Assembly: GCA_965204745.1 (NCBI GenBank)
Contig: OZ242010.1
Location: forward strand, 2,784,001-2,848,000
Length of the DNA: 64,000 bases
Source of the DNA: Candidatus Latescibacterota bacterium
GTDB taxonomy: Bacteria > Latescibacterota > UBA2968
Reading direction: 5' to 3'
Positions 1 through 18,252 of the stretch are shown here, piece after piece (position 1 is the stretch's first letter; each line of letters opens with the position of its first letter). Position numbers and translations under genes: made by a program. Under the pieces are notes generated by a model. The model worked only from the letters and a program-made list of their open reading frames with translations. It searched no databases and was not told the DNA's origin.

Positions 1-388
1 GCAAAACGCCGTTTTGGAGCGTGGAGTGCATGCGGTGACGCGGCGTGGAAGACGCAATGCCGAGTTTGTACCCCGCGGTTTGGAGATGTGCGAGCAGGTC
101 GAGAAACCCGGGCATGAGGGCGATTTGAGCGGGATCCGCAATCGCGGCCTCAAACCGGGTCATCCACGAGTGGAGAAAATCTTCCGGGCGAACCGGCAAT
201 GCGTAGCGCGTCACCGCATTCGCGCTGTTGTCCGCTACCGGATGCCCAACGCAACGCACGTAATCCGCACGGGGAATGTCGACCCCCTGTTCATTGAGGG
301 TCTGGTTATAGGTCTCGTAATAAAGGGTTTCCGTATCGACAATCAGGCCATCCATATCAAAGAGGACGGCCTGGTATGATTTCAACAT
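1..388 (-). CDS. HAD-superfamily hydrolase/phosphatase (subfamily IA), 3' end runs off the window
   Basis: Not in the ORF track. Manual translation from ATG 388 gives MLKSYQAVLFDMDGLIVDTE...LGIASS, with HAD motif I (DxDG) and motif II; the frame is open to the window edge. Confidence 0.9.
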   Translation of the reverse strand, partial: MLKSYQAVLFDMDGLIVDTETLYYETYNQTLNEQGVDIPRADYVRCVGHPVADNSANAVTRYALPVRPEDFLHSWMTRFEAAIADPAQIALMPGFLDLLAHLQTAGYKLGIASSTPRHRMHSTLQNGVL

Positions 389-406
389 GATTTTTCCTGC
401 GTGAAC

Positions 407-1240
407 TTAAAACTGATAGGAATAATACAGCGCGATGCCGTGTTCTTTCGCATAAGCCGCAACGGGTTCAGACGAGATCATATGCGTGATGAGAACGGGC
501 AAGACATTTTCAAACTGAGGCCTCAGGGGCTTGAGCCTGCGGTTGATAAATCGTTCGATGTGATTGGCGGACAACTGACTCTTGCTCTCGCCGAGGATGA
601 CCACCTCGCGCCCATTTTCGCGCCCTTTCCCATAAATGTTCACCTCGAGGGAACGGCCCCTATTATCCGTGAGATAGGTGCGAATGAGTTGGCCCTGCAC
701 CTCAATGCCATAGTCGGCCTTGAGGAGCGCAGGCAGTGCGCGATAGGCCACATTTTCGAGCGTATAACCCACGGTCATCGAGAGGCCGCCAAGTTGTCTG
801 CGGGTTTCTCGATGAGCACCGATCAAGTCGTTGAGCGTCTGTTCGGTGCGCGCTTGGGCCGCGGTCAACTTTTCAATCGCCGCTTCCACGCGCTCCAGAC
901 GTTCTTCGGTACGCGCTTGGGCCGCGGCCAGTTCATCGATGCGTTCTTCGGTGCGCGCTTGGGCCGCGGTCAATTTTTCAATCGCCGCTTCCACACGCTC
1001 CAGACGTTCTTCGGTGCGCGCTTGGGCCGCGGTCAACTTTTCAATCGCCACTTCCACGCGCTCCAGACGTTCTTCGGTGCGCGCTTGGGCAATCGCCAGT
1101 CTTTTGACCGCATCCTTGAGGTCTTGCATATCGACAGAGGTGGCCAAGCCCGTGCGTTGTTCGTCCAACACCTCGGCGAGAATGGCAACTTGGTCGTCGG
1201 TGAACGCGCTCTCCAATCTGCGTTTCATCTCATGCAACAT
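407..1240 (-). CDS. Coiled-coil repeat protein with C-terminal PD-(D/E)XK-like domain (DUF3782-like architecture)
   Basis: Five AQARTE(E/Q) coiled-coil units, then VGYTLE...EVNIYG...ILGESKSQL. RBS AGGAG upstream. Confidence 0.75.
   Translation of the reverse strand: MLHEMKRRLESAFTDDQVAILAEVLDEQRTGLATSVDMQDLKDAVKRLAIAQARTEERLERVEVAIEKLTAAQARTEERLERVEAAIEKLTAAQARTEERIDELAAAQARTEERLERVEAAIEKLTAAQARTEQTLNDLIGAHRETRRQLGGLSMTVGYTLENVAYRALPALLKADYGIEVQGQLIRTYLTDNRGRSLEVNIYGKGRENGREVVILGESKSQLSANHIERFINRRLKPLRPQFENVLPVLITHMISSEPVAAYAKEHGIALYYSYQF
842..1090. repeat. Coding tandem repeat with 63/42/63/63-bp spacing
   Basis: TTCGGT(G/A)CGCGCTTGGGC at 842, 905, 947, 1010 and 1073. Confidence 0.95.
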
Positions 1241-1635
1241 CGTTTCTCCTGTTCCTTTTCTGTTGACCCCTATTGACTATCGGATAGCCAGCAGTGATTC
1301 AACCAGTGCATTCTCGTTACAACATCCTGCTGGTTCTTGATTTCAAATTGTCATCAAGCCTTTAAGGACACAAGAATGGGTGGAACCCCCAAAGTCATTT
1401 CCAAGTTCTTCAAAGAACGCTTGGAATGACGCGAAATACGACTGTAACTGCTTACCAGAAAGACCCTTACACTGCCCTCTTACTACGCCCCTCGTACTAG
1501 GTCGGCGTGTGACAGTGACTGCACTACCCTCGGATTTCACGCGGTCAGGACTTTTCGCCGCAACAGGATTTGATACTGCAAAATAACAAGCAACAATAAT
1601 CAACAAATCACCTACAAGACATCACCTCCTTTTGG

Positions 1636-3561
1636 TCAATATTCAACGGGTTCTTTTTTTGCAACGCGCCGGGCCGTTGCAGCAATGGCATCGGGCGAGA
1701 GGCCGGCTTCATCGCGCAGGTCGCCCTGTGAGCCGTGTTGAAAAAATCGGTCCGGAATGCCCAGCGTATAGACGCGCTGCCCATCGCGCAGGCGGTCACT
1801 CAGATAACGCGCAACAGCCGCGCCGAATCCACCTTCCGCGGTATTTTCTTCTATCGCGATCAGCACCTGATAGCGGTCGGATAGATCCTCGAGCATCGCC
1901 AAATCCATCGGCTTCACAAATCGGCAGTTGATCACAGCGGCAGAAATCCCGGCATCCAACAGCTTTTCCCGCGCTTGACGAGCGTGATCCACCATCGTGC
2001 CCACCGCGAGGAACACCACGTCCTCGCCCTCGGCCAATGCCTCCCATGAACCGATCTTCAGCACCTCGGGATCGCGCCCGGAAAGCGGGGTATGCACATT
2101 GCCGCGCGGGTATCGGATGGCAAACGGATAATCGACTTGTTGCACCGCCGTGTATAACAAATCTCGCAACTCATCGCCATCCTTTGGCGCGGTGACGATC
2201 ATATTGGGCACACAGGTCAAATACGACAGATCGAAATCCCCGTGATGCGTCGGGCCATCTGCCCCCACCAACCCGGCGCGATCCATGCAGAAAATCACCG
2301 GCGCGGACTGCAAGGCCACGTCGTGAATGATCTGATCGTACGCGCGTTGCAAAAACGTGGAATAAATCGCGGCCACAGGGCGCATGCCCTCGAGTGCCAT
2401 CCCGGTCGAAAACGTCACCGCGTGCTGCTCGGCAATGCCCACGTCGAAAAACCGGTCCGGATGGGCTTCGGCAAACGCATCCAACCCAGTGCCTTCGGAC
2501 ATCGCGGCGGTCACGGCCACCACCCGGCTGTCGCTGTTCGCCAACGCGATCAATGCCTCGCCAAAAACCGATTGGTACTTGGGCAGGGGCGTTGGGGACG
2601 ACGGCGGGCTGATCGCGTGGTACTTGGTCGAATCCGCGCTATACGGGTCTTCCTCGCCTTCGTGAATCGCCCCCTTGCCCTTGATCGTATGGACGTGCAA
2701 CAACACCGGGCCTTTCAAATCCCGCACGTTTTTCAGGGTTTGCACCATCGCTTGCAAATTATTCCCATCCAAAGGGCCGAGGTACCGAAACCCCAGTTCC
2801 TCAAACAAAATCCCCGGCACCAACATGCCCTTCAATCCCTCTTCAAACCCGCCCAGTGCGCGGCGCAAATTTTCGCCCACAACCGGAATGCGCCCGGCCA
2901 AATTCCACGCCTCTTCCTTGATTTTTTGATACAGGGGATCGCCCGTGATCCGGTCTTTCACGCGGTTGTAAATCGGGTCCGTAATAATGCGCGTCAAGTA
3001 GTGAGAAATCGCCCCCACATTGGGCGAAATGGACATGCGGTTGTCATTGAGAATCACCAGCAGATCGCGATGGGACGCGCCGGCATTGTTCAACCCCTCC
3101 AGCGCGATGCCACTCGTCATCGCGCCGTCGCCAATCACCGCGACCACCTTGTGGTTTTCCCCCATCAAATCGCGCTTGGTCGCAAAGCCCAAAGCCGCGG
3201 AAATCGACGTGCCCGCATGCCCCACGGCAAAGGTGTCGTAGCGGCTCTCACTCCGCAACGGAAACCCGCTGATCCCGCCCGGTTGCCGAATGGTCTTGAG
3301 CGCGTCGCGCCGCCCGGTCAGCACCTTGTGTCCATACGCCTGATGCCCTACATCCCACACGATTTTGTCCTGCGGCGTATCGTACAAGTGATGCAAGGCC
3401 ACGGTCAATTCCGCGGCTCCCAAACTGGACCCAAAATGCCCGCCAATCTCCGTCACCACGTCGATGATGTACTGCCGCAGTTCCGTGCAAACCTGCTGCA
3501 ATTCTGCCATCGACAGGGGCTTTAAGTCGTCAGGCGAGTTGATCGTTTCGAGAAGGGACAT
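1636..3561 (-). CDS. dxs: 1-deoxy-D-xylulose-5-phosphate synthase
   Basis: GGHFGSSLG, WDVGHQAYGHK, GDGAMT...LNDN (TPP binding), DVGIAEQHA and GADGPTHHG motifs. Start MSLLETINSP with RBS AGGAG. Confidence 0.97.
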   Translation of the reverse strand: MSLLETINSPDDLKPLSMAELQQVCTELRQYIIDVVTEIGGHFGSSLGAAELTVALHHLYDTPQDKIVWDVGHQAYGHKVLTGRRDALKTIRQPGGISGFPLRSESRYDTFAVGHAGTSISAALGFATKRDLMGENHKVVAVIGDGAMTSGIALEGLNNAGASHRDLLVILNDNRMSISPNVGAISHYLTRIITDPIYNRVKDRITGDPLYQKIKEEAWNLAGRIPVVGENLRRALGGFEEGLKGMLVPGILFEELGFRYLGPLDGNNLQAMVQTLKNVRDLKGPVLLHVHTIKGKGAIHEGEEDPYSADSTKYHAISPPSSPTPLPKYQSVFGEALIALANSDSRVVAVTAAMSEGTGLDAFAEAHPDRFFDVGIAEQHAVTFSTGMALEGMRPVAAIYSTFLQRAYDQIIHDVALQSAPVIFCMDRAGLVGADGPTHHGDFDLSYLTCVPNMIVTAPKDGDELRDLLYTAVQQVDYPFAIRYPRGNVHTPLSGRDPEVLKIGSWEALAEGEDVVFLAVGTMVDHARQAREKLLDAGISAAVINCRFVKPMDLAMLEDLSDRYQVLIAIEENTAEGGFGAAVARYLSDRLRDGQRVYTLGIPDRFFQHGSQGDLRDEAGLSPDAIAATARRVAKKEPVEY

Positions 3562-3688
3562 GATCGCTCCTAAGTGATCGTGAGGGCGGCGATAAAATGG
3601 TCGGACGCATTGTCCAAATATAACCAACACAAAAAAGATCACAAAGTTGAAAAAAGAAAACGCACGAATAGAATCCCGCCCAAGGCGG

Positions 3689-5617
3689 TTACTTGGCATT
3701 AAACGCCATTAAGGCAGCATCGGCTCTGCCGCAAGAGACCCATAGTTCAGGGACGATATGACGACAAAGATGACGCAAGGACGAGTGGAACATTTGCCCT
3801 TCCGTATCTTTCAAATCATCAAATGCGAGTTCCGTCAGCCAATCCCCTACAAATTCCGTCCAATCATTAAGGTCCGCACGACTCGCAGCGGCTACGAGGC
3901 AAATGTTTATGATCTTTTGGATAGGCAACGCATACTCGGCATCGCGCCTGTATCTGCGTATGAGAATTCGCAATTCGTCCGCGAGCGCGGGGCACCTTGA
4001 AACGGCGGCAACTGAAGCCAATCCATTCAAGATATCGACAAGTTGCAATTCGCTCTCTAGGTTTTGGAGATGATAGTTGGACCGCTTTAGTGCTTTTACC
4101 GCTAATTCAGCCTGGCTTGTACCCATGGGGAAAATCAAGGCGAAATTCACGAGAGGAATGAAAGACAGTGGCTCTACCACCTCTGTGCGGAGTTGTGCCT
4201 CAATCGTTTCTGCGACTTTGGGAGGCAAAATGCGCTGAGGGGTTTCGGTTCCCTCTAATGGGCCAGGTAGCCATAGATAGGGGGAATCATCGCTAAAAGA
4301 TTGAAGGCTCCCGGGCTTGTTTGCGAGTAGCAAATCACATATTTGGCTACCCGTTATATTCTGTTCGTAGATCTTGGCTACAATCAGGATACGACCCAAA
4401 AAATCGTCCTTCATTTGTCGAGCATCTGCAAATTCAGGATGCCAGCGCGGGGCCAAACGCATATCGACGAGCGATTGCAGATAATACGGCCCTCCATGAT
4501 TGCGAAATGCCCACTTACTAAATTCCCCAACATCAACAGATGAATTTGCAAACTGACGCTGAATCAATGCGGCTTGCGCCAAGGCTGATAATCTTCTGTA
4601 GAAGGGTGGCTCTGCTGACAACAGCCGGGTTCTGGATAGCTCGCTATCCACGAGACAAAACAATGCCGAGAGCAGCTTAAACCCGCTCGCTTGCCCGTCA
4701 ACATCATCGTCTCGAATCTGCTCAATGAGACGAATGAGAGCTCGTTCTATCTCGGGTCTTGAAGGAAGAACTCGAAGGCCAACTTCAATCGCTCCCAACT
4801 GCGAGATTCTGTCTCCATGCTCGTCCAAAAAGTCAAAGGCGCGTACGAGGTCTTCACGACTCAACTGATCGACATTGATTTTAGCGGTCATTGAAGGATG
4901 TGACGACAAAAGGAGACGAGACAAAAATCCATCATAGGGTCGCCACGCAGACAGGTGGTCAAAGAGCTTCCCGCCTCCCCCGGAGGCGTAATCGCCGATA
5001 GTAGTGCTCCCGTCGAATTCACCCACAAGTCGTTCAAAATATCTACGAGAATGAGGAACCAGAGTGGATAAACCAATCGAGCCACTCCTAATTTTCCTGC
5101 GTATGGAAGGGGCCATTTCGACTGGCGTATCGAGAAATTCATCGTTAAACGCCGCAATTTCTTCGTCTTCAAGAGCGCGTTTTGCAAGAATGTCGCGCCA
5201 CCGGTCAGACGCGCTGTTGGGCAGATTGTAGTCGGAAGCAACTTTATCGAGAAAACGCAGACGTGTGTCCTTGTCCGGCGAAAGTGCCACAAAACAGGAT
5301 GGCAGGGGAATACGCTGATTACCGCGAAAAAGTGAAAGTTCCGGCAACTCTCCTTTTTTTTTCATGTTCTTTAGCCTCCACTTTTGTCCCTCCGTGTCCA
5401 TTACTTTCTTTTCCAATGCACCTGAAAGAACCCTGCGAACAGCATTGTTCAGAACGGAACGGCGGACGGAAATACCAGAATCATGAAAGGCAATAATAGC
5501 GTCCTCCCTAATGTCGTACTCCTTCCGAAATTTAGGATTTTCAATCAACGTCTCACCGATAAGCGGAGGTGTACGTTGCAAAGCTATCAATGCAGATTTG
5601 ACATCGGGACTATTCAT
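3689..5617 (-). CDS. Uncharacterised 642-aa, mostly helical protein; coupled partner of the TIR-TPR-PIN gene
   Basis: Long ORF whose ATG at 5617 overlaps the upstream stop by 8 nt, with RBS GGAGG/GAGG. No recognisable catalytic motif. Confidence 0.8.
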   Translation of the reverse strand: MNSPDVKSALIALQRTPPLIGETLIENPKFRKEYDIREDAIIAFHDSGISVRRSVLNNAVRRVLSGALEKKVMDTEGQKWRLKNMKKKGELPELSLFRGNQRIPLPSCFVALSPDKDTRLRFLDKVASDYNLPNSASDRWRDILAKRALEDEEIAAFNDEFLDTPVEMAPSIRRKIRSGSIGLSTLVPHSRRYFERLVGEFDGSTTIGDYASGGGGKLFDHLSAWRPYDGFLSRLLLSSHPSMTAKINVDQLSREDLVRAFDFLDEHGDRISQLGAIEVGLRVLPSRPEIERALIRLIEQIRDDDVDGQASGFKLLSALFCLVDSELSRTRLLSAEPPFYRRLSALAQAALIQRQFANSSVDVGEFSKWAFRNHGGPYYLQSLVDMRLAPRWHPEFADARQMKDDFLGRILIVAKIYEQNITGSQICDLLLANKPGSLQSFSDDSPYLWLPGPLEGTETPQRILPPKVAETIEAQLRTEVVEPLSFIPLVNFALIFPMGTSQAELAVKALKRSNYHLQNLESELQLVDILNGLASVAAVSRCPALADELRILIRRYRRDAEYALPIQKIINICLVAAASRADLNDWTEFVGDWLTELAFDDLKDTEGQMFHSSLRHLCRHIVPELWVSCGRADAALMAFNAK

Positions 5618-8600
5618 CACCTCGTCCTCCTTCCTCTGTCTGATCCCTATTAGCCACTTTCGCAATCCACCTTCGATGCCATTCGACGAGCTCAAAATAC
5701 AGATCGGGGTATTGTTCTTTGATCGGGGCCAGAATGCTCTCTTCGACCCAATTCCAGTACTCGTCTGTCACTTCCTGGGGCACATTAGCCGGAGGGATGA
5801 GCACCGCCAGGATATACGCGCTACGTCCCGTCTTGGCGATGTCAGTTCCATTTTCTCTGCCAAAGCTGTGCGCCCAGCCGCGCATGTCAACCTGCTCCAC
5901 AATCCAGTCGGAGCGAGCACGCACATCTGAAAAGTCAGCCTTGGTTTTCCACAGGTCTTTTAGCACTTGGACGAACGTTCTGTACAACTCAACCAGCCAA
6001 CGTCCCTCTTTCGGAAGTTGAAGCCAAGTAGTCATCCTAACATGAAGGATGTTTTCCCGGATGGCCTTTAGTTCGGCTGTCTCCATAACTTTGCCATTCT
6101 CGACCCTAGAGGCATTGAGATGATGTGCCAGTTCATCCTCGCTTACGGGAATGAAGAAATACCCGGCCTGACGGAGTTGCGTCCTGTACTCCATTCGTTC
6201 TTCAGGCGTGATAGAATTAGCGGCGACCAGTGCATCTATGATATCCAATGTTGTAAATACCCGCGCATGTGCGTCGCCATCATCGTTTGCATTACGTCCT
6301 CGAATATGGACATGTTGGTTGAGGCATCTGTCGTCCAAAATGATTGCGTCACAATGTCCTGCCAAATCGAAAACACCAGCGGTTGGATGTCCAGCGATTG
6401 CCTGTTCTTTTGGTTGATCGGGATAGATTTGCCTGCCTACCTTTATTTGGCCTGACTCTATCCGTTTATTAACGGCGGCCCGTATGCGTTCTATGGCGTC
6501 TTTGGCCTTGTCGGAAATCTTTTCATAAGAAATCAGTTGATTTGCTTCAGATACTTTTTTTGACGAAATAATCGGTGTGAAACCCGCGGCTTTTAGTTTG
6601 TCCAACATCCCGAGACGAAGGAAATAGTCCACAGCCAAATCATCCAAGTACAGCGTTGCCCCATCGGCAATCTGCGGTTGATTTGCCCAAGGCTTCTCGT
6701 GAAATCGAAAATAGGCACGCGCCTCCTGTTCTTCCCGCGTAGTTATCCGGCCCTTTTGTTGCAACTTATCTACAATGGCTTGACAACTACTCAACACCGT
6801 TGCATGCGCCGTTAAGTCCGCTTCTTCCTCCATCAACGAAGTGACTCGGTAAACCGGAGATGGCCGAACAACAATGCGTTGGTTACCGTCGCTGTCCCTC
6901 ACCGCTTCCGCCTCGGCGATAAGCAACGCCAAATCCTGTCCAACTTGAACGGACACATCGCTGTCCGCCACCGTGCTTGGCGAGAGCCTTTCCAGCACGT
7001 CTGTTGCAATCAAATCGCGGAGTTGACGCGCGGCCTTAATTCGACTGGGTTGATGAAATGCAACCCGCTGTTTTTCATGAAAAAGCCAATGAAGGGTTGA
7101 ATGCGGTAGGTGAACCGTCTCAAAAGCGTCCAATGCTTTATCGAGCGAGTTCAGAAGACTCAAGGTGAGTAATGCGGTTACATCCATTCCTACCTGTCCA
7201 CCGGTATTGAGCGGTGGCGGTTGCCGCTGGCCGCTATATGCGGGGATAGCACCTCGCCGTCTCGGATCGCTCTCCGACGGGTTCGCCAAAGCGGGGAAAA
7301 GCATCAAATCGCCAAGGGACCGGTTGAGGAAGATAGCTACCAGAAACATCGAAATTTCACCATGGCTCAACTGTTGCCAGATTTCAGACGCGCTGCGGTT
7401 CCAATCCGGTTCCAGGTCCAGAAATTCCCTTAGTGTCACCTGCCAGAGTGGGCCATCGTCGCCGGAGAGTTCGACGGCTTTCTGGATCCACTCAAAAACC
7501 CTTGGATCATCTTCCCAACCGGCATTTGAAGCCAACAAGTAAGCCTCTGCTAGTACATCAGCATCATCGTTGCCCTTTTGTGTCGCTGCAAATATCAACT
7601 CTTTTGCAATGTCCCAATGAAGGGCCAATTGAGCCGTGCGTATCAATTCTCGGGCACTTCTCTCGTCTTTTGCTTGGCGTTCTTTAGCCACAAATTCAGA
7701 GAGGGCGTTCCAATTCCCCAAAGAGATTTCGAGATCAATTTTTAATTTTCGGTAGTTCGGATCATCCCAATCGCCATTCAGTTTCGCCAACTCGGAGCGT
7801 GCCTCTAAGAGCATGCCCGTTTGGTACAAAGACCAGCAATAGAGCATTTGCAGCTTATGGGATTGTGCTAACGGGGTCTTGTTTGCTTTTAAGAACGCTA
7901 CGAGTCGTTCATTTTGCTGTGTCTCATGTAGAGCAAATGCAAACCGTTCCGCATCGCGCAAATCATGGGTTTTTTCAAACAGAATTTCGCCATACTCGCA
8001 AAGACTGTCCCAATCGTCTCTTTCTTCAAGGAAGGGAATGAGGGTCTCCAAATCAGATAGAGATTTTGTTTTTTTGAATTGCTCTTTGAGACCCTCAACT
8101 GGATCAGTCCCTTCTGCTTCGGCAATTATTTTTTCGAGTCGGCTTTCCTCCTCCTCGGAAAGCCTGTCTTTTATCAGTGTAGCCAAGCACTTATTTGCCT
8201 TTTCGATCTGCCCACTTTTTGTAAGTGCCACGAGTTGAAGATACAGCATTGCTTTTTTGTCAATGTGAGTGGCGAGTTCGTCATAGTGCCGGGCAATGTA
8301 GTCCGCAATGGCTTCCGGGCTTTTCTGCGTGAAGGCGAGAGCAAAGCGAGCGAGTGCGGCGTCAAGCGTAAGCCCGCCGTTGAGGGCAATTTTTCGTTCG
8401 ATCTCCCGTTCGATTGCCTCTATATCCAGGTCAATTCCAAATTCAACACCGAGATGAACAAAATTAAGAGCGGTCTTGGGATTGCGAAGTTTGGACTCCA
8501 ATCGTTTTCGCCCTTGATCTGATTCATCTGGGTCCCTGAGTTCAAGCCAAAGAGCGTACCCATCAGCCAGAGTTGCCACATGAGGGAGGCTTAACTCATG

Positions 8601-9785
8601 GGCAACTTTTTTTGTTTCTATAAAGTGTTGGTGTGCGACCCGGCGGGATTCTATCGAATCCGCATCTGAGGCAAGCGGGAAGTGTGCGACAGAGAGTGGT
8701 AGTTGTCTAAGTACAACGGTGCGAAACTCAACGGGTACCGTACTCAGCAAGTGAGTTATTGCCATCAGATGATGTAGCACAGGCGCGTCGCGCAAGTCGT
8801 CTTCAGTCAGCGCATCAATACTTTTCTGTGCGCCCTCCCAATCCTCGAGTTCAAACTGATACCACAAGAGAAAACATTTGCCGTCAGAGTCCAGATCAGA
8901 AATGCCTGCTTTCTTCAACCAGTCAACAGCCCCTTGCGGGCCGTCATGATGTGCAACGATGTTGAGTGCCGCGGATCGAGACATTGGCGAATCAATTTTA
9001 GTCAAGGTGCTCAGAGCCGCTTGCTTATCGCCCTGTTGAGAAAATATAAAAGCGTCTGCTATGTCGATTTCCTGGCAAGCTCCTAATTTCTTTGCGATCT
9101 TGAGGTACTCGCCTGCTTGGTCCAATTTTTCAGTACGTGCCAAGAATCTTACACACCAAGCGAGAGATTCACGCTTGACTACATTAGTGCCGCCCGAGAG
9201 TTCTCCTTCAACCAGCTTTCTCGCAAGTGCGAATGAAGATTGGACGCTGTCGTACTCTTCGAAAAAGCGAGATTTGCGGAGTATATCGGTCTCCTCTTTG
9301 ATTTTTTGATCAATGAGTTCCATTACAGCATCGCTTGGAAAAATTTTTTTTTGTTTTTTTGCTTCTTCTGCCAAAGCGTTTGCTATTTCAAAGAATGCGT
9401 CGTCGCATAAGGAGTAATGTACGACCGGCTTTCCGTCCTTTGGAAGTGCTTTCAGCCTGCCAAATGGTGCTCTCTGCCAATCACAGGGTCGTAAAATCAC
9501 AGGTATAGTTATTACTCCTCGTGTGTTTCTCTGCTCTAATGCTTTAACCGTTTCCACTTCTCGGCAGTATGTTGACGCCAAAAAATCTGGGCTTACCAAA
9601 AGAAGGATAATATCCGCTTGTTCCAGTTCCTTTTGGATCACACTGTCCAATTCTTCGCCTGGCCGGATTTGTTCGTCAGACCATATCATGACATTTTCTT
9701 GTCGTTTAAGTTCTGTGAGGTGTTTTTCTAGTTCCAGCCGCAGATCTTCATCTTTATGGGCATAGGAAATGAAAATTTTTATCAT
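5610..9785 (-). CDS. TIR domain + TPR-like repeats + C-terminal PIN-like domain(s), 1391 aa; putative defence protein
   Basis: N-terminal KIFISYAHKD...ADIILLLVSPDFLASTYCREVE...IPVILRPCDW (TIR_2). Long helical middle. C-terminal VGMDVTALLTL, LYLDDLAV and AIILDDR acidic PIN-like motifs. RBS AGGAGG. Confidence 0.8.
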   Translation of the reverse strand: MIKIFISYAHKDEDLRLELEKHLTELKRQENVMIWSDEQIRPGEELDSVIQKELEQADIILLLVSPDFLASTYCREVETVKALEQRNTRGVITIPVILRPCDWQRAPFGRLKALPKDGKPVVHYSLCDDAFFEIANALAEEAKKQKKIFPSDAVMELIDQKIKEETDILRKSRFFEEYDSVQSSFALARKLVEGELSGGTNVVKRESLAWCVRFLARTEKLDQAGEYLKIAKKLGACQEIDIADAFIFSQQGDKQAALSTLTKIDSPMSRSAALNIVAHHDGPQGAVDWLKKAGISDLDSDGKCFLLWYQFELEDWEGAQKSIDALTEDDLRDAPVLHHLMAITHLLSTVPVEFRTVVLRQLPLSVAHFPLASDADSIESRRVAHQHFIETKKVAHELSLPHVATLADGYALWLELRDPDESDQGRKRLESKLRNPKTALNFVHLGVEFGIDLDIEAIEREIERKIALNGGLTLDAALARFALAFTQKSPEAIADYIARHYDELATHIDKKAMLYLQLVALTKSGQIEKANKCLATLIKDRLSEEEESRLEKIIAEAEGTDPVEGLKEQFKKTKSLSDLETLIPFLEERDDWDSLCEYGEILFEKTHDLRDAERFAFALHETQQNERLVAFLKANKTPLAQSHKLQMLYCWSLYQTGMLLEARSELAKLNGDWDDPNYRKLKIDLEISLGNWNALSEFVAKERQAKDERSARELIRTAQLALHWDIAKELIFAATQKGNDDADVLAEAYLLASNAGWEDDPRVFEWIQKAVELSGDDGPLWQVTLREFLDLEPDWNRSASEIWQQLSHGEISMFLVAIFLNRSLGDLMLFPALANPSESDPRRRGAIPAYSGQRQPPPLNTGGQVGMDVTALLTLSLLNSLDKALDAFETVHLPHSTLHWLFHEKQRVAFHQPSRIKAARQLRDLIATDVLERLSPSTVADSDVSVQVGQDLALLIAEAEAVRDSDGNQRIVVRPSPVYRVTSLMEEEADLTAHATVLSSCQAIVDKLQQKGRITTREEQEARAYFRFHEKPWANQPQIADGATLYLDDLAVDYFLRLGMLDKLKAAGFTPIISSKKVSEANQLISYEKISDKAKDAIERIRAAVNKRIESGQIKVGRQIYPDQPKEQAIAGHPTAGVFDLAGHCDAIILDDRCLNQHVHIRGRNANDDGDAHARVFTTLDIIDALVAANSITPEERMEYRTQLRQAGYFFIPVSEDELAHHLNASRVENGKVMETAELKAIRENILHVRMTTWLQLPKEGRWLVELYRTFVQVLKDLWKTKADFSDVRARSDWIVEQVDMRGWAHSFGRENGTDIAKTGRSAYILAVLIPPANVPQEVTDEYWNWVEESILAPIKEQYPDLYFELVEWHRRWIAKVANRDQTEEGGRGDE

Positions 9786-9896
9786 GGTTTTTACCCTCCT
9801 GTTAATCGCATTCATTGAGCGGGTTAGTAAATCGGTATCTAAAAATCGCCCATCCTTTTCCGAGATCAGAGCTTTGGTTTTCTCAATCGCCGTGTC

Positions 9897-10892
9897 CTAT
9901 ATTCCAGTAAGGACGCGATGGCTTTTGTTTAGAAAGAGATGGGAGGGAAGTTTTGATTTTTTGAATTGACCCTCTACATCATACCGCGAGAATTTTGAGT
10001 CAAACTTGCTCACGCTTTCTCCATAGCGCCGACGGGGGGCTTGACGTTGCAATGGCAAGAGACGCTCTAACTCTTGTGGCACAGATGATCGTTGAGCAGT
10101 TCGTAGCTGGTGCAGGTGCCGGAATGACAAGAGACGCTTTAACTCTTGTGGCACAGATGAGTCGGATGATTCTGTCTGCATATCCTCGGGTTGCTCGTCA
10201 ATCACCCGCAAGACGTCAAAGACGCGGGTTTGGGATTCTGTCTGCATGTCCTCGGGTTGCTCGTCAATCACCCGCAAGATGTCAAAGACGCGGGTTTGGG
10301 ATTCTGTCTGCATGTCCTCGAGTTGCTCGCCCCGGTTGAAAACCGAGGATTCCGCCTCCCGTGCTGAATCGGAACGCCAAAGCTCGTCGAACGCACTGTC
10401 TCTTAGCGGTTCCCGTAGCGGTGATTTGATGATGTGATCGTTGACGTTTAGGATGTGGGACTCTGCCGAGCCGGGAGACTTTGAGGAATTAGCAAGGTCG
10501 CCCAAAACGAAACGTCCCCTTTGCGTAACATTTCGGCAGAGGTCCCCCGAATTTTGCATCGCGTCGGCGATTTCTCTATTGATGGTTTCTTTGAGCAGGT
10601 CGCGCAGTTCCTCGGCAATTTTTGGATGTGGGTGGCCCACGAGGGCTTTGTTCGCCAACTCCTTGGCCAAGCGTGGTTGATCGCAGTCCAAAGCCAGCCA
10701 ACCTGCGCTGCGGTGTAGTATGGACCAACTCAGCCCGTTCTGATCGTTCAGTGCGTCGATCGCGTTCAGTTCAAATTTCAACGCCTGTTCAAAGAACTCC
10801 GTTGCCCGTTTCTCGTTGCCTCGCCGCCGTTCCATAACAGCGTGGTCAACGCATTCCATTGCCTTGTTGTGAAGATCACTAACGTTGCCCAT
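9897..10892 (-). CDS. Small TPR-like helical domain protein with a repeat-containing low-complexity C-terminal extension
   Basis: N-terminal ~100 aa LHNKAM...SILHRSAGWLALDC...IAEELRDLL. Overlaps the upstream gene end; RBS GAGGAG. Confidence 0.7.
   Translation of the reverse strand: MGNVSDLHNKAMECVDHAVMERRRGNEKRATEFFEQALKFELNAIDALNDQNGLSWSILHRSAGWLALDCDQPRLAKELANKALVGHPHPKIAEELRDLLKETINREIADAMQNSGDLCRNVTQRGRFVLGDLANSSKSPGSAESHILNVNDHIIKSPLREPLRDSAFDELWRSDSAREAESSVFNRGEQLEDMQTESQTRVFDILRVIDEQPEDMQTESQTRVFDVLRVIDEQPEDMQTESSDSSVPQELKRLLSFRHLHQLRTAQRSSVPQELERLLPLQRQAPRRRYGESVSKFDSKFSRYDVEGQFKKSKLPSHLFLNKSHRVLTGI
10056..10330. repeat. Coding repeats: ~2.5 x 66 bp, plus 2 x ~33 bp spaced 72 bp apart
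   Basis: GATTCTGTCTGCAT at 10168, 10234 and 10300 (EDMQTESQTRVFD units). CAAGAGACGCT(C/T)TAACTCTTGTGGCACAGATGA at 10056 and 10128. Confidence 0.93.
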
Positions 10893-11475
10893 TTCTCTTC
10901 TCCTCAATCTCGGCAAGCGGCCTTCTAAATTCGACTACGATTACGTAGACAGGCAATCCCCAAGTATCAGATTGGTCTATCTGTTGTAACTTTTTTTGAA
11001 TTCTTTCTCTGATTCGATGGTCATTGCCCGTGCGAATGCCGGATACTTCCAGGCTACCTCTGACAACAAAATTGTCATCTTGTAGAATGTCTCGCAATTT
11101 CGTCGTTACCTCGCGTTCGATGGCCGATATATTTGACGTATCAGCATTACCCAGCCAGTAATCAAATCCCGTGCCTTGCCATGAACGTGCAATAACGGTA
11201 TAACCAATTTCCCGGATAGCCACTAGAACCGCTATGCCAATCGCACCGGCCTCGGTAGCTTCATTGGGGTCATTCCAAGTCCGGCGTACTTGATTATTTG
11301 CTGGCGTCCAAGACAAGGGATAGCTATTGCTAACATACCCTTGAACCATAAGTCGGACACCTTGTTGGTGTCCTTGAGATTCTAAGCATATCGCTCCTGC
11401 CTGTGCCAGTTCATTGCCCTTTACTCGCGTGATGCCAGGGATGTCGTCGGTGTCCAAGTCATTCAAATTCAGCAT
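10879..11475 (-). CDS. Uncharacterised protein, putative PD-(D/E)XK-like nuclease
   Basis: EATEAGA...RSWQGTGFDYWLG...LEVSGI...VYVIVVEF, an E...D...ExS arrangement. An alternative TTG start at 11496 overlaps the SDR stop. Confidence 0.65.
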   Translation of the reverse strand: MLNLNDLDTDDIPGITRVKGNELAQAGAICLESQGHQQGVRLMVQGYVSNSYPLSWTPANNQVRRTWNDPNEATEAGAIGIAVLVAIREIGYTVIARSWQGTGFDYWLGNADTSNISAIEREVTTKLRDILQDDNFVVRGSLEVSGIRTGNDHRIRERIQKKLQQIDQSDTWGLPVYVIVVEFRRPLAEIEEKRNGQR

Positions 11476-14798: not shown

Positions 14799-15743
14799 AT
14801 GCCAAACAAAACCATTCGCTACTTGGACGATGGCAGTATCGAACTCATCGAACGGGATGTTCCGGATCCGGTTGCGGGCGAAATTCAAATTGCGGGCGGC
14901 GCGTGTGGGATTTGTTCGTGGGATGTGGCGACCGCCAAACTCGGCGTGCAAATGCACCCGATGGCGCCGCCCGGGCACGAGGGCGTGGGCTATGTCGCCA
15001 AAGTGGGGGCGGGTGTCATGGGCTTCAGAGAGGGCGACCGGGTCGCAGGAGGCGGGTTCGCGCTGATTCGCAACTTGTCCGCGCAGCGCGTTCACAAAAT
15101 CCCGGCATCGAACTTGCCGGACGAACACTGGATCGTCGAACCCGTGGCTTGCGCGGTCACGGGCATTGACCATTGCCAGATTCAACCTGGCTATCGCATC
15201 GCGGTGATCGGTTGCGGGTTCATGGGCTTGTTGATCCTGCAAGGGCTTCTCCGCCATCCCCTCGACGATTTGATCGGCTTGGACATCGCGCAAGGCCGGT
15301 TGGATATGGCGCGACAACTCGGGGTCGCCGAAGTCTATAATACGACGCAGGTGGATATGCCCGCCTTGGCGCGGGAACTCAAAGCCCGAGAGATCGACGT
15401 TGTGGTCGATACCTCGGGCAGTCAGGCCGGCCTGGACCTCGCCACTGACATCGTAAGACGCGGCGGGCGCATCAACCTCTTCGGCTGGCTCAAAGGTCAA
15501 ACCGCCACATTTGACCCCACAAAATGGCACTTGGGGGGATTCACCGTCGTCAACTCCGCGCCGGCTTCAAAACTGCGCGACACATTCGGGCCGGCGATTC
15601 GCCTCATCCACAAAGGCATCATCGACCTCAAACCGCTGGTGACACACACGGCCCCCCTCGAAGATTATCCCGCGCTCATGACCCGCATTGTAGCGGGCGA
15701 TGAGCATTACATCAAAGGCGTCGTCACGCTCGACCCAGAATGA
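14799..15743 (+). CDS. Zinc-binding (MDR family) dehydrogenase
   Basis: CGICSWD, GHEGVG, EPVAC, GCGFMG. Confidence 0.92.
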   Translation: MPNKTIRYLDDGSIELIERDVPDPVAGEIQIAGGACGICSWDVATAKLGVQMHPMAPPGHEGVGYVAKVGAGVMGFREGDRVAGGGFALIRNLSAQRVHKIPASNLPDEHWIVEPVACAVTGIDHCQIQPGYRIAVIGCGFMGLLILQGLLRHPLDDLIGLDIAQGRLDMARQLGVAEVYNTTQVDMPALARELKAREIDVVVDTSGSQAGLDLATDIVRRGGRINLFGWLKGQTATFDPTKWHLGGFTVVNSAPASKLRDTFGPAIRLIHKGIIDLKPLVTHTAPLEDYPALMTRIVAGDEHYIKGVVTLDPE

Positions 15744-15783
15744 CGCCAGGCGGCTGTCTCGCCTACTGAAAAGGACAAAAGAA

Positions 15784-18252
15784 ATGGCCCTCAAAACGAC
15801 AACGGACTTTGCAACGGGCAAGGCCATTCAAGCCGACAAGGCAGAGGAAAAAGTCCGTCAAGAATACGAACGAGTCTTGGTCCACGACTACGGCTATCGC
15901 AAGTCGGAGATAGACATTGAAGTGCCGATTCCACGCGGATCGAGTCAGAAAGATCGCGCCGATGTGGTGGTGTACGCCGCCGCAAAGGGCAGAGATCCAT
16001 CCGCCGATATTCTGGGCATTATTGAAACCAAGCGGCCCGGAGATACCTCCGGCAAAGCACAACTCAAATCGTACATGACGGCGACCTCAGCGGTTTGGGG
16101 AGTCTGGACCAATGGAGACAGCATCGAGTATTTCTGCAAGCCCTACGGTCAGACCGCCGTATCAGAGGGCTATCTCAACAACATCCCTTCGCGGGGACAG
16201 CGCGTTGAAGATGTGGGAAACCACAAAAAGAGCGAATTGAAACCTTATGGACGAGTGGAACTCAAGTTGGCCTTTCGGCGCATTCTGAATACCCTGTACG
16301 CAAACACCACGATCAGCCGTCGCGAGAAGCTCGGCAATGAGATGATCAAGTTGATTTTCGCAAAGATACGAGACGAAACGACCTATCCCAATCGCGTGCC
16401 AGCCTTCCGCGTCGGTTATGGCGAAGATCCAGAATCCGTCAAAGAGCGGATCGTCGCTCTGTTTCGAGACTCGGTCCGCGACCTGTCCCATGATGGCGTT
16501 TTCGATCAACGCGACACGATCACCTTAGATGCCAAGGGCGTAGCGTGGGTGGTCGGGCAACTGGAGCGGGGAAGTCTGGTCGAGACCCCTACGGATGTGG
16601 TGGGCGATGCCTTCGAGGTTTTTGCCGAATCCAAACTCGTGGGCGAGAAAGGCGAGTTTTTTACGCCGCGGGGCGTCATCGACCTCGCCGTGAAACTAAC
16701 CGGTCCCCAACCCGAGCAGACGGTCTGCGATCCGGCCTGTGGTTCGGGCGGTTTTCTAATCGCCACCATGCGCCATATTTGGCAATCGATGGAGAACGAT
16801 CCAAAATGGAAAAATCTACCGGAACTACAGTTGCAATCAGCCAAACACCAAATCGCTTCAAGGTGTTTTTTCGGCATTGACAAGGAATCCGATCTCGTCC
16901 GAATCGCAAAGGCGTACATGGCGATTTCAGGCGATGGACGAAGCAATATCGTCCATGAGAACGCGCTACACGAGGTGGCGGACTTCAACGACATAGCCAG
17001 ACAGCGGTTTATGGAAAATGGCAAGTTCGAGCAGTTCGATTTCATCCTGACCAATCCGCCTTATGGCACGAAGACAAAAGTCTTAAAAAACGAAGCTCAA
17101 AACTTTGAGTTGGGGCACAAGTGGTCCCTAAAAAATGGAGAATGGGTCAAGGGAAAGCCCCGAGAAACCGATCCTTATGTGCTGTTTGTGGAGCGATGTT
17201 TCGACATGCTCAAAGATGGCGGCACGTTGGCTATCGTCTTGCCGGAAACCGTTTTTCACGCGCCGACAACCGCGTACTTGCGCCACTATATGGCAAAGCA
17301 AGGCGATGTGGTTGCCGTCATCGGACTGCCGCATAACACCTTTCGCCCGCATTGCAATGCAAAAACCTGCTTGCTGGTGATGAAGAAAGGGACGGGGCGG
17401 AGGGATGAGCGGCAAACCGTCATCATGGCCGCCCCAAAGGAAATGGGACACAACCACCAAGGAAAAGAGATGTATCGGCCTGGCACGTTGGATGTGTGGA
17501 ACGATCTGCCCGTTGTCTTAAAAGAATTAGACGATCCTTCAGACAGCGAAAATGCGTTCGTCTTCACTGTGCCATGGAAAAAGATCGAAGCGACTGGGCA
17601 CCTCATCCCGCATTACTACGCCTACCGCCGCAAGCCAAAGTTGCCACCGCCTGGGCAAAAGTGGGTGCGATTGGGGGATCTCGTCGCCGAGGAGGTCATC
17701 GTTGCCTGGGACGGTCACGGATCGCCATCGAGCGCGGAAAAAGGAGAAGGCGACATTCCCTACATTCGCGTCGCGGACATCGTGAATTGGGAGCTATACC
17801 GAAACCCCACCTCGGGCGTCACGCTCGAAACTTATGAGAAACTCACGCGGGGAAAACCGCGTGTGAAAGCAGGAGACGTCATTTTCGTCCGCAGAGGTAG
17901 CTATCGAATCGGGACCGTGGCAATGGCGTCTGAGCGAGACGAAATGGTCGTCCTCACGCGCGAGTTGTTGACGCTTCGCGTGCAGGACAACGATTATGGG
18001 TTCACACCGCACTATCTCCTCGCGCTTATGTCGTCACAATTGGTACAAGATCAAATCGAGAGCCTCGTCTTCATAGATACCACGCTACCCAACATCGGCG
18101 ACCGCTGGCGAGAACTTTTGCTCCCCGTGTATCTAAAAAGGAATGAGATCGACGAATTGAGTGCCCGCGTGTCATCCGCCATCCAAAAGAAGTGGGCGGC
18201 CCAACGCGAGATTCAGGGTCTTCGCGCCGACATCGGAGGCCTGGTCACATGA
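15784..18252 (+). CDS. Restriction-modification fusion: HsdR-N-like nuclease + amino-methyltransferase (NPPY) + single TRD
   Basis: EEKVRQ...RADVVVY...IIETK; GEFFTPR; CDPACGSGGFL; NPPYG; C-terminal HsdS-like half (IPYIRVADI, GDVIFVR). Confidence 0.88.
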   Translation: MALKTTTDFATGKAIQADKAEEKVRQEYERVLVHDYGYRKSEIDIEVPIPRGSSQKDRADVVVYAAAKGRDPSADILGIIETKRPGDTSGKAQLKSYMTATSAVWGVWTNGDSIEYFCKPYGQTAVSEGYLNNIPSRGQRVEDVGNHKKSELKPYGRVELKLAFRRILNTLYANTTISRREKLGNEMIKLIFAKIRDETTYPNRVPAFRVGYGEDPESVKERIVALFRDSVRDLSHDGVFDQRDTITLDAKGVAWVVGQLERGSLVETPTDVVGDAFEVFAESKLVGEKGEFFTPRGVIDLAVKLTGPQPEQTVCDPACGSGGFLIATMRHIWQSMENDPKWKNLPELQLQSAKHQIASRCFFGIDKESDLVRIAKAYMAISGDGRSNIVHENALHEVADFNDIARQRFMENGKFEQFDFILTNPPYGTKTKVLKNEAQNFELGHKWSLKNGEWVKGKPRETDPYVLFVERCFDMLKDGGTLAIVLPETVFHAPTTAYLRHYMAKQGDVVAVIGLPHNTFRPHCNAKTCLLVMKKGTGRRDERQTVIMAAPKEMGHNHQGKEMYRPGTLDVWNDLPVVLKELDDPSDSENAFVFTVPWKKIEATGHLIPHYYAYRRKPKLPPPGQKWVRLGDLVAEEVIVAWDGHGSPSSAEKGEGDIPYIRVADIVNWELYRNPTSGVTLETYEKLTRGKPRVKAGDVIFVRRGSYRIGTVAMASERDEMVVLTRELLTLRVQDNDYGFTPHYLLALMSSQLVQDQIESLVFIDTTLPNIGDRWRELLLPVYLKRNEIDELSARVSSAIQKKWAAQREIQGLRADIGGLVT

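Follow-up and report, generated by a model that had tools for sequence, protein, structure and literature searches.

A TIR-headed gene pair from a Latescibacterota genome as a split form of the TPR-GreA/B-C-PIN family with a likely role in anti-phage defence

Within a 64,000-nucleotide stretch of a Candidatus Latescibacterota bacterium genome (contig OZ242010.1, positions 2,784,001 to 2,848,000; hereafter the window), two coupled minus-strand genes, an upstream gene of 1391 codons and a downstream gene of 642 codons, are by their domain content a split, double-PIN, permuted-GreA/B-C form of the TPR, GreA/B-C, PIN (TGP) family with a TIR head. TGP proteins, as described in the accessible text of Kaur et al. 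2021 (PMC8195603), share a core of TPR, GreA/B-C and PIN domains, carry one of 13 alternative heads that include TIR, and are encoded by "mostly standalone genes". The domain matches make membership of this family very probable, and we consider a role of the pair in defence likely. Our fuller reading, to which we give a somewhat better than even chance, is that the pair is a two-subunit anti-phage system of the abortive-infection type, which docks on RNA polymerase and has RNase and NADase outputs; docking on RNA polymerase, taken by itself and argued from analogy, is a mechanism that we place a little below even. A preliminary description of the locus, made from the letters alone, had regarded it as the best candidate for an undescribed system in the window. 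That judgement no longer holds, as the family has been described computationally with a TIR head (PMC8195603), and the related Bab/Agp pair is reported to defend in the accessible text on that system (bioRxiv 10.1101/2024.11.07.622273). The same description had mentioned TPR-GreAB-C-PIN proteins as proposed conflict systems, and this label points to the right family: PF20698 and PF24407 match the large protein, and PF24388 matches the partner. The two genes and their domains, in window coordinates, are as follows.

5610..9785, minus strand: large gene, 1391 aa, with TIR head, TPR-like helical region, HTH, two PIN domains and C-terminal helical domain
9366..9785, minus strand: swappable TIR head, residues 1 to about 140, with E76 and E78 (Pfam, PADLOC, alignment)
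7434..9338, minus strand: helical TPR-like region, residues about 150-784, presumed sensor or scaffold (sub-threshold TPR and ARM matches)
7224..7433, minus strand: HTH_upst_double_PIN domain, residues 785-854 (PF24407, 76.6 bits against a cut-off of 27)
6786..7196, minus strand: predicted PIN copy 1, residues about 864-1000, with D868, T870, E904 and D990 (weaker PF20698 match, model, alignment)
6216..6668, minus strand: predicted PIN copy 2, residues about 1040-1190, with D1048, D1151, D1152, R1153, N1156 and D1181 (PF20698)
5610..6143, minus strand: C-terminal helical domain, residues about 1215-1391 plus the stop codon, predicted docking surface for the partner (AlphaFold and complex models)
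3689..5617, minus strand: partner gene, 642 aa (open reading frame (ORF) list, translation)
5306..5497, minus strand: beta-rich domain of the partner, residues 41-104, matched by Permuted_GreAB-C (PF24388; strands and one helix in the model)
3692..5299, minus strand: all-alpha solenoid of the partner, residues 107-642, 535 aa (AlphaFold model)

The features that tie the pair to the TGP family are a PIN domain of the PF20698 type, a GreA/B-C domain, here on the partner and thus on another chain, and a variable head. The PIN-TPR-GreABC model (PF20698) matches residues 1046-1160 of the large protein at 45.5 bits (cut-off 27.8), and a weaker first copy lies near residues 868-928. The acidic motifs MDVTAL, LDDLA and LDDR, picked out in the preliminary description, proved to be conserved PIN motifs in an alignment of 69 sequences (67 in some columns): MDVTAL contains D868 (D in 66/69), LDDLA contains D1048 (60/67), and LDDR contains D1151 and D1152, each present in 69/69. 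E904 (68/69), D990 (63/67) and D1181 (61/69) are conserved as well. The AlphaFold model of residues 780-1391 (pLDDT 88.0, pTM 0.83) has two PIN-type beta-alpha repeats followed by a helical domain. Foldseek found no match to this model in the PDB at E<=1e-3. VIA-align, run against 48,161 chains, returned a series of PIN domains, of which the best was 1o4w (Z 7.9, rmsd 3.3, 121/125 aligned), followed by SMG6/EST1A (2dok, Z 7.1), 3ix7 (7.0) and Nmd4 (8rdd, 6.7), and then by SMG5 (2hwy, 6.5), Utp24 (5yz4, 6.0) and VapC (5x3t, 5.5). These Z values lie in a range that the tool rates as common, and the matches are supportive of the Pfam call rather than independent proof of it. PF20698 and VIA-align together back the PIN fold on which the first idea of the locus depended.

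At the other end of the large protein, Pfam TIR_2 matches residues 4-109 (E 5e-16), and the best PADLOC match of the head is a ThsB-type TIR model (8.7e-50). E76 of the STYCREVE motif aligns with the Glu in the WCxxE motif of the RPS4 and Cat1 TIR domains, which we take to be the catalytic Glu. Both E76 and E78 are invariant in 11/11 TIR-headed relatives, the query counted. An N-terminal TIR domain with Glu at the catalytic position, as first proposed, is therefore what the alignment and the TIR_2 match indicate, and two effector types, TIR and PIN, are both predicted. The stretch between head and HTH, initially described as about 650 aa of helical repeats, fared less well: weak TPR and ARM matches, and weak PPR and TPR matches in the PDB, do exist for region 150-784, but those to TPR and ARM stay below threshold in the query and its homologues alike.

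The partner was listed at first as a protein of unknown type, a label that no longer fits, as it carries a GreA/B-C-like module. PF24388 matches residues 47-96 at 28.5 bits (cut-off 27), scores 31.7-39.6 bits in three relatives, and is precomputed on 118 of the 120 partner homologues listed. The AlphaFold model of the partner is of high quality (pLDDT 95.7, pTM 0.94) and runs from three short N-terminal helices through a beta-rich domain with one helix (41-104) into an alpha solenoid that extends to residue 642. No solved relative was found by sequence, Foldseek (no PDB match at E<=1e-3) or VIA-align; the latter returned only generic or designed helical repeats, with a best Z of 10.2 that is below the level the tool treats as meaningful for repeats. 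In these whole-model searches, which the solenoid dominates, neither the beta domain at 41-104 nor the solenoid was tied to a solved fold, and the ESM Atlas gave scores of 0.82 only, which are uninformative. Within residues 41-104, no position is conserved at 90%.

Our computations show co-inheritance of the two genes and frequent fusion. With clusters at 50% identity as the unit, the partner family numbers 1048 representatives at E<=1e-3, of which 477 reach E<=1e-30. Among the best 150 partner representatives, 111 are free-standing proteins of 600-700 aa, five are of intermediate length (701-1400 aa), ten are shorter than 600 aa, and 24 exceed 1400 aa, with the partner at the C-terminal end in all 24. 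From the opposite direction, a search with the body (residues 780-1391) returned 853 proteins; PF24388 is also present on six of the 120 body homologues listed, five of them fused ORFs of about 2005-2013 aa. Fused single ORFs, whose existence the preliminary description had suggested checking, occur and span about 1900-2200 aa.

Synteny is conserved as well: at 12 of the 13 other loci examined, the double-PIN body and the partner are adjacent or joined in one chain. A single-protein scan of genome contigs yielded only three loci, and the wider context came from a broader genome search. An intact body is directly followed by the partner at nine of the 13 (L001, L021-L025, L027, L030 and L031). 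At L003, the partner gene behind an intact 1281-aa body is split into three ORFs (7998-9926), which could reflect decay or an error in a metagenome-assembled genome. Two loci carry fusions. At L002, a 2053-aa NACHT-type NTPase (2-6163) precedes a 1226-aa HTH-double PIN-partner fusion (6180-9860) that is without a head and without the long helical region, and here a STAND sensor may replace the head and TPR part. At L035, from a genome of the same genus, a 1789-aa body-partner fusion (3765-9134, minus strand) overlaps a separate 351-aa Mrr-like gene (9106-10161) that serves as the head; a type I specificity-subunit gene adjoins the pair at this locus. The remaining locus, L028, retains only a remnant of the partner.

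In keeping with this linkage, the large protein is predicted to contact its partner through its C-terminal helical domain, with the partner contributing its first and last helices to the interface. A complex model of residues 1041-1391 with the partner, also proposed at the outset, reached an ipSAE of 0.70 (0.70, 0.60 and 0.75 in three runs), while the best of three controls scored 0.01. Of 80 solved complexes 58 attain this mark, as do two of 110 mismatched pairs; ipSAE is the model's own confidence and no measurement. That the model merely reproduced a known structure is unlikely because no solved relative exists. The runs share at least 80% of contacts, with a pLDDT of 86 for the partner, and in the predicted interface body helices 1235-1382 meet partner helices 4-34 and 584-641. 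The GreA/B-C-like domain would thereby lie beside the PIN module, in agreement with the fusions found in nature.

These results bear on an alternative in which the pair resembles a toxin-antitoxin module, with the partner inhibiting the PIN and TIR activities until it is removed upon infection. A downstream, translationally coupled partner would suit such an arrangement, the PIN domains have a fold like that of VapC-type toxins, and the role of "scaffold or inhibitor" had been suggested for the partner in the preliminary description. However, the partner is large, highly conserved and well folded in the model, a labile antitoxin would hardly be expected to occur fused to the body, as the partner does in 24 of the best 150 representatives, and the predicted interface lies on the C-terminal helical domain, away from the PIN active sites. 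We therefore regard this alternative as improbable. The fusions and the passing complex model suit a constitutive subunit, and they speak against the inhibitor half of the earlier suggestion. Differences from VapBC itself are apparent in the layout: there a small PIN toxin is paired with a small upstream antitoxin, whereas here the PIN domains reside in a 1391-aa protein and the partner lies downstream and is often fused.

The head of the large protein varies while the body and partner are kept, as had been proposed as a check on the locus. The 120 best body matches align from query residue about 140-157 to the end at 59-96% identity. Of these, 106 retain a full-length body and were used for a census of heads, and 14 are truncated at the N terminus; heads were clustered after trimming of linker sequence shared between classes. 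The classes were as follows.

HNH-like head: 82/106 matches
TIR head: 10/106 matches
Head class of 180-190 aa with no Pfam match: 10/106 matches
Helical singleton heads: 2/106 matches
SMEK_N head: 1/106 matches
Short 56-aa stub head: 1/106 matches

More distant copies on plasmids have a DUF676 esterase-like head, and some relatives are headless. The three nearest bodies, at 91-96% identity, bear an HNH head and not a TIR. On a quick FastTree tree of 106 bodies, built from metagenomic sequences of uncontrolled relatedness, head class needs 20 changes, where the minimum possible is five and the shuffled mean 23.4. The 11 TIR rows alone need 11 changes, at least ten of which are forced by well-supported branches. 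In addition, in 55/55 pairs the TIR heads share more identity with each other than do the attached bodies (median 86% versus 67%). We read this pattern as repeated cassette exchange at a fixed junction. Two observations concern the other heads. The 180-190-aa class (P0135, P0137, P0144 and seven others) has conserved GGDAGVECYWK and WQAKYF motifs, and our guess would be a nuclease of the PD-(D/E)xK type. PDB profile searches found no relative of body or partner, the sole strong match being to HNH heads in the alignment: a solved 435-aa "HNH endonuclease" (PDB 9om4_A, E 8.3e-12), which is a possible template for the HNH head class.

Head exchange also informs what the TIR may do. We read it as a self-contained toxic output and not as a signal maker, because HNH, nuclease-like, SMEK and esterase heads can take its place. 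The contrary view is that the TIR works as in Thoeris and makes a nucleotide signal for an effector encoded elsewhere. The strong match to the PADLOC ThsB model fits this view, and the TIR fold with its conserved Glu is a true likeness to ThsB. In contrast to Thoeris, the TIR here is an interchangeable head on a PIN-bearing body, and no ThsA of the SIR2, Macro or SLOG type was found among the neighbours, the rest of the genome lying outside the search. Replacement of the TIR by HNH, SMEK or esterase on near-identical bodies, down to the HNH heads of the nearest ones, argues for an autonomous toxic output, and signalling of the Thoeris kind appears very improbable. The pair also differs from Avs and other STAND sensors, as neither protein has a Pfam match to a P-loop or STAND NTPase family; the absence of such a domain had been noted at the outset. 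Our results likewise support the earlier exclusion of Avs, Thoeris, CBASS and SPARTA.

Among described systems, the TGP proteins of Kaur et al. are closest in composition, with a variable N-terminal effector, a helical repeat region, a PF20698 PIN domain and a GreA/B-C-type module in the published account (PMC8195603). That account has a single, standalone gene ordered TPR, GreA/B-C, PIN. Here the parts are divided between two genes in the order helical region, HTH, PIN, PIN, followed by the permuted GreA/B-C domain and a 535-aa solenoid. Body and partner are also not fast-evolving, unlike TGP proteins as characterised there, and retain 60-68% identity across phyla. Pfam curators already recognise the permuted GreA/B-C domain (PF24388) and the HTH upstream of a double PIN (PF24407). 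A literature search found no paper on the split, permuted form; supplements, subscription journals and slash spellings such as "GreA/B-C" were outside its scope.

Experimental precedent comes from two systems, in each case as far as the accessible text describes them. Bab/Agp of E. coli ECOR25 protects against phage T5, and mutations in GreA/B-C that mimic RNA polymerase-binding defects abolish this defence (bioRxiv 10.1101/2024.11.07.622273). It resembles our pair in joining a TGP-type protein to an adjacent gene, in an abortive-infection defence that needs GreA/B-C. Agp, however, has 1094 aa with TPR, GreA/B-C and PIN in one chain, which here are split over two, and Bab, a membrane-targeting executioner of 109 aa, is activated by amyloid templating, whereas here the TIR executioner forms part of the large protein and the GreA/B-C-like module resides on the 642-aa partner. 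GAPS6, from the GMT islands of Vibrio parahaemolyticus, is a validated anti-phage system that likewise has two genes, one encoding a protein with TPR and PIN (bioRxiv 10.1101/2023.03.28.534373). By its description, which is the sole basis of our comparison, the TPR-PIN protein of GAPS6 is encoded second and not first as here, and the accessible description mentions no head, HTH or GreA/B-C domain.

The proposed defence function of the pair is well supported by its genomic context, namely patchy presence, low GC content, no shared neighbours and defence genes at the site. Partner matches occur in 12/168 genomes of the phylum, two of them as a remnant or fragment only. The HTH domain of the body occurs in 11/168, of which ten match the partner too and the eleventh has the fused, divergent form at L035. 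The system is present in four of 20 other genomes of the genus and in a single copy in the window's own genome. No gene neighbouring the pair in the window is common to any related locus. GC content is 0.43-0.52 at about 3.5-10 kb and 0.55-0.65 in the flanks, which bears out the early remark that both genes are richer in AT than the host. The segment concerned is the following.

3590..10583, no strand: AT-richer cargo segment of about 7 kb between dxs and the conserved flank, with other cargo in sister genomes

We compared this region with three genomes of the same genus that have the closest Dxs proteins (97, 96 and 93% identity), all without the system. The conserved flanks stop at about window positions 3589 and 10584. 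Between them, genome G091 has a C5 methylase and a type I restriction-modification set, and G082 has a SMODS/CD-NTase cyclase and a type ISP restriction enzyme, so that by domain matches known defence genes are present at this site in two of the three sisters. The cargo found upstream of dxs varies among these sisters (L032, L033 and L034). A distant copy on a conjugative Agrobacterium plasmid lies beside VapBC, an integrase, an HsdR-N protein and a SIR2 protein, and the phage collection searched contained no partner homologue.

This distribution also addresses whether the pair could be a non-immune housekeeping factor for RNA processing or quality control of transcription. Its unusually high conservation and its chromosomal position adjoining dxs would be expected of such a factor. 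However, presence in only 11-12 of 168 phylum genomes and four of 20 others in the genus, a genomic context that differs at every locus, low GC content, toxic and swappable heads and plasmid copies amid defence-rich surroundings argue against housekeeping, and we consider this the most improbable of the alternatives.

In the mechanism that we propose for a two-subunit TGP defence system, modelled after Kaur et al. 2021 and the genetics of Bab/Agp, the GreA/B-C-like module would bring the complex to RNA polymerase by docking at its secondary channel, or would sense in some other way a polymerase seized by phage. The PIN module would cut RNA at the polymerase, and the TIR head would then be activated, probably via oligomerisation, and would destroy NAD+, such that the infected cell stops supporting the phage. 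This follows the proposal for TGP proteins in the accessible text of PMC8195603, in which the protein docks on hijacked RNA polymerase, PIN cuts the transcript and the head acts as a fail-safe.

Several points weigh against this interpretation. The putative GreA/B-C assignment comes from one short Pfam model barely above threshold (28.5 against 27 bits), and the permuted domain follows the PINs instead of preceding them, so that RNA polymerase docking may not be conserved. The candidate TPR assignment of the helical region is weak. Body and partner, identical across distant taxa to the extent given above (60-68%), are unusually conserved for immune proteins. PADLOC v2.0.0 recognises only the TIR and nothing else on body or partner, and NCBIfam likewise has nothing beyond the TIR. 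At the third sister genome, G087, the cargo site holds about 3 kb with a di-haem oxidoreductase gene and an ORF without a Pfam match, which is non-defence cargo, and no integrase, tRNA or flanking repeats in the window mark an insert.

The first of these points could also mean that the pair is the same defence system with another trigger, in which the helical region or the partner solenoid binds a phage protein and the permuted GreA/B-C domain is a structural remnant. We rate this as unlikely, although it is the strongest of the alternatives. TPR domains are well-known sensors of phage proteins, and the barely significant match of the permuted domain, with no 90%-conserved residue in 41-104, would be natural in a remnant. 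L002, moreover, has a separate NACHT protein, a classic direct sensor, in place of the head and helical region. Set against this, PF24388 is nevertheless retained on nearly all partner homologues listed (118/120), and the high conservation of body and partner is more readily explained by a conserved host target than by phage ligands that evolve fast. The loss of Bab/Agp defence upon GreA/B-C mutations that mimic RNA polymerase-binding defects, reported in the accessible text on that system, argues in the same direction.

If RNA polymerase is indeed the target, a bolder and doubtful extension is that the pair represents a distinct and widespread two-subunit machine that patrols RNA polymerase, with the permuted GreA/B-C domain in the channel, the paired PINs cutting nascent phage RNA and a hot-swappable suicide head. 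In that tentative picture, head type would be almost random with respect to body phylogeny as a result of recombination at the fixed junction, and the pair would, just as speculatively, be a plug-and-play effector platform architecturally separate from single-chain TGP. Confirmation of our interpretation would provide a second, architecturally different test case for the idea that GreA-like domains allow bacteria to detect an RNA polymerase seized by phage. The outcome would also define a large, uncharacterised two-protein system, with at least 1000 clusters at 50% identity, of which PADLOC v2.0.0 sees only the ThsB-like TIR. The sharp and repeatedly used junction between head and body is a natural experiment in the exchange of immune effectors and possibly a useful scaffold for testing effector domains.

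The layout of the locus fits two coupled genes. The start codon of the partner (ATG, 5615-5617) and the stop codon of the large gene (5610-5612) overlap such that the genes share 8 nt, which confirms the overlap first noted. Two further sites lie at the outer ends of the pair.

9795..9800, minus strand: Shine-Dalgarno sequence AGGAGG, 9 nt 5' of the large-gene ATG at 9785
3676..3688, minus strand: terminator-like GC hairpin directly 3' of the partner stop codon

Promoter-like and terminator-like sites are no more numerous across the region than expected by chance. The next gene downstream of the pair is dxs, and the gap between them is about 120 nt because the Dxs proteins of relatives align only from residue 42-44 or so of the long ORF. 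On the other side, an ORF at 9897-10916 (minus strand) contains tandem repeats at 10051-10329 (66 nt three times and 72 nt twice) that encode repeated peptides. It may be chimeric or spurious because it has no family match and straddles the boundary between conserved and cargo sequence near 10584. About 6 kb from the system, an 850-aa protein encoded at 15700-18252 (plus strand) has HSDR_N, N6_Mtase and Eco57I-type domains, and by these matches it looks like a single-chain restriction-modification enzyme.

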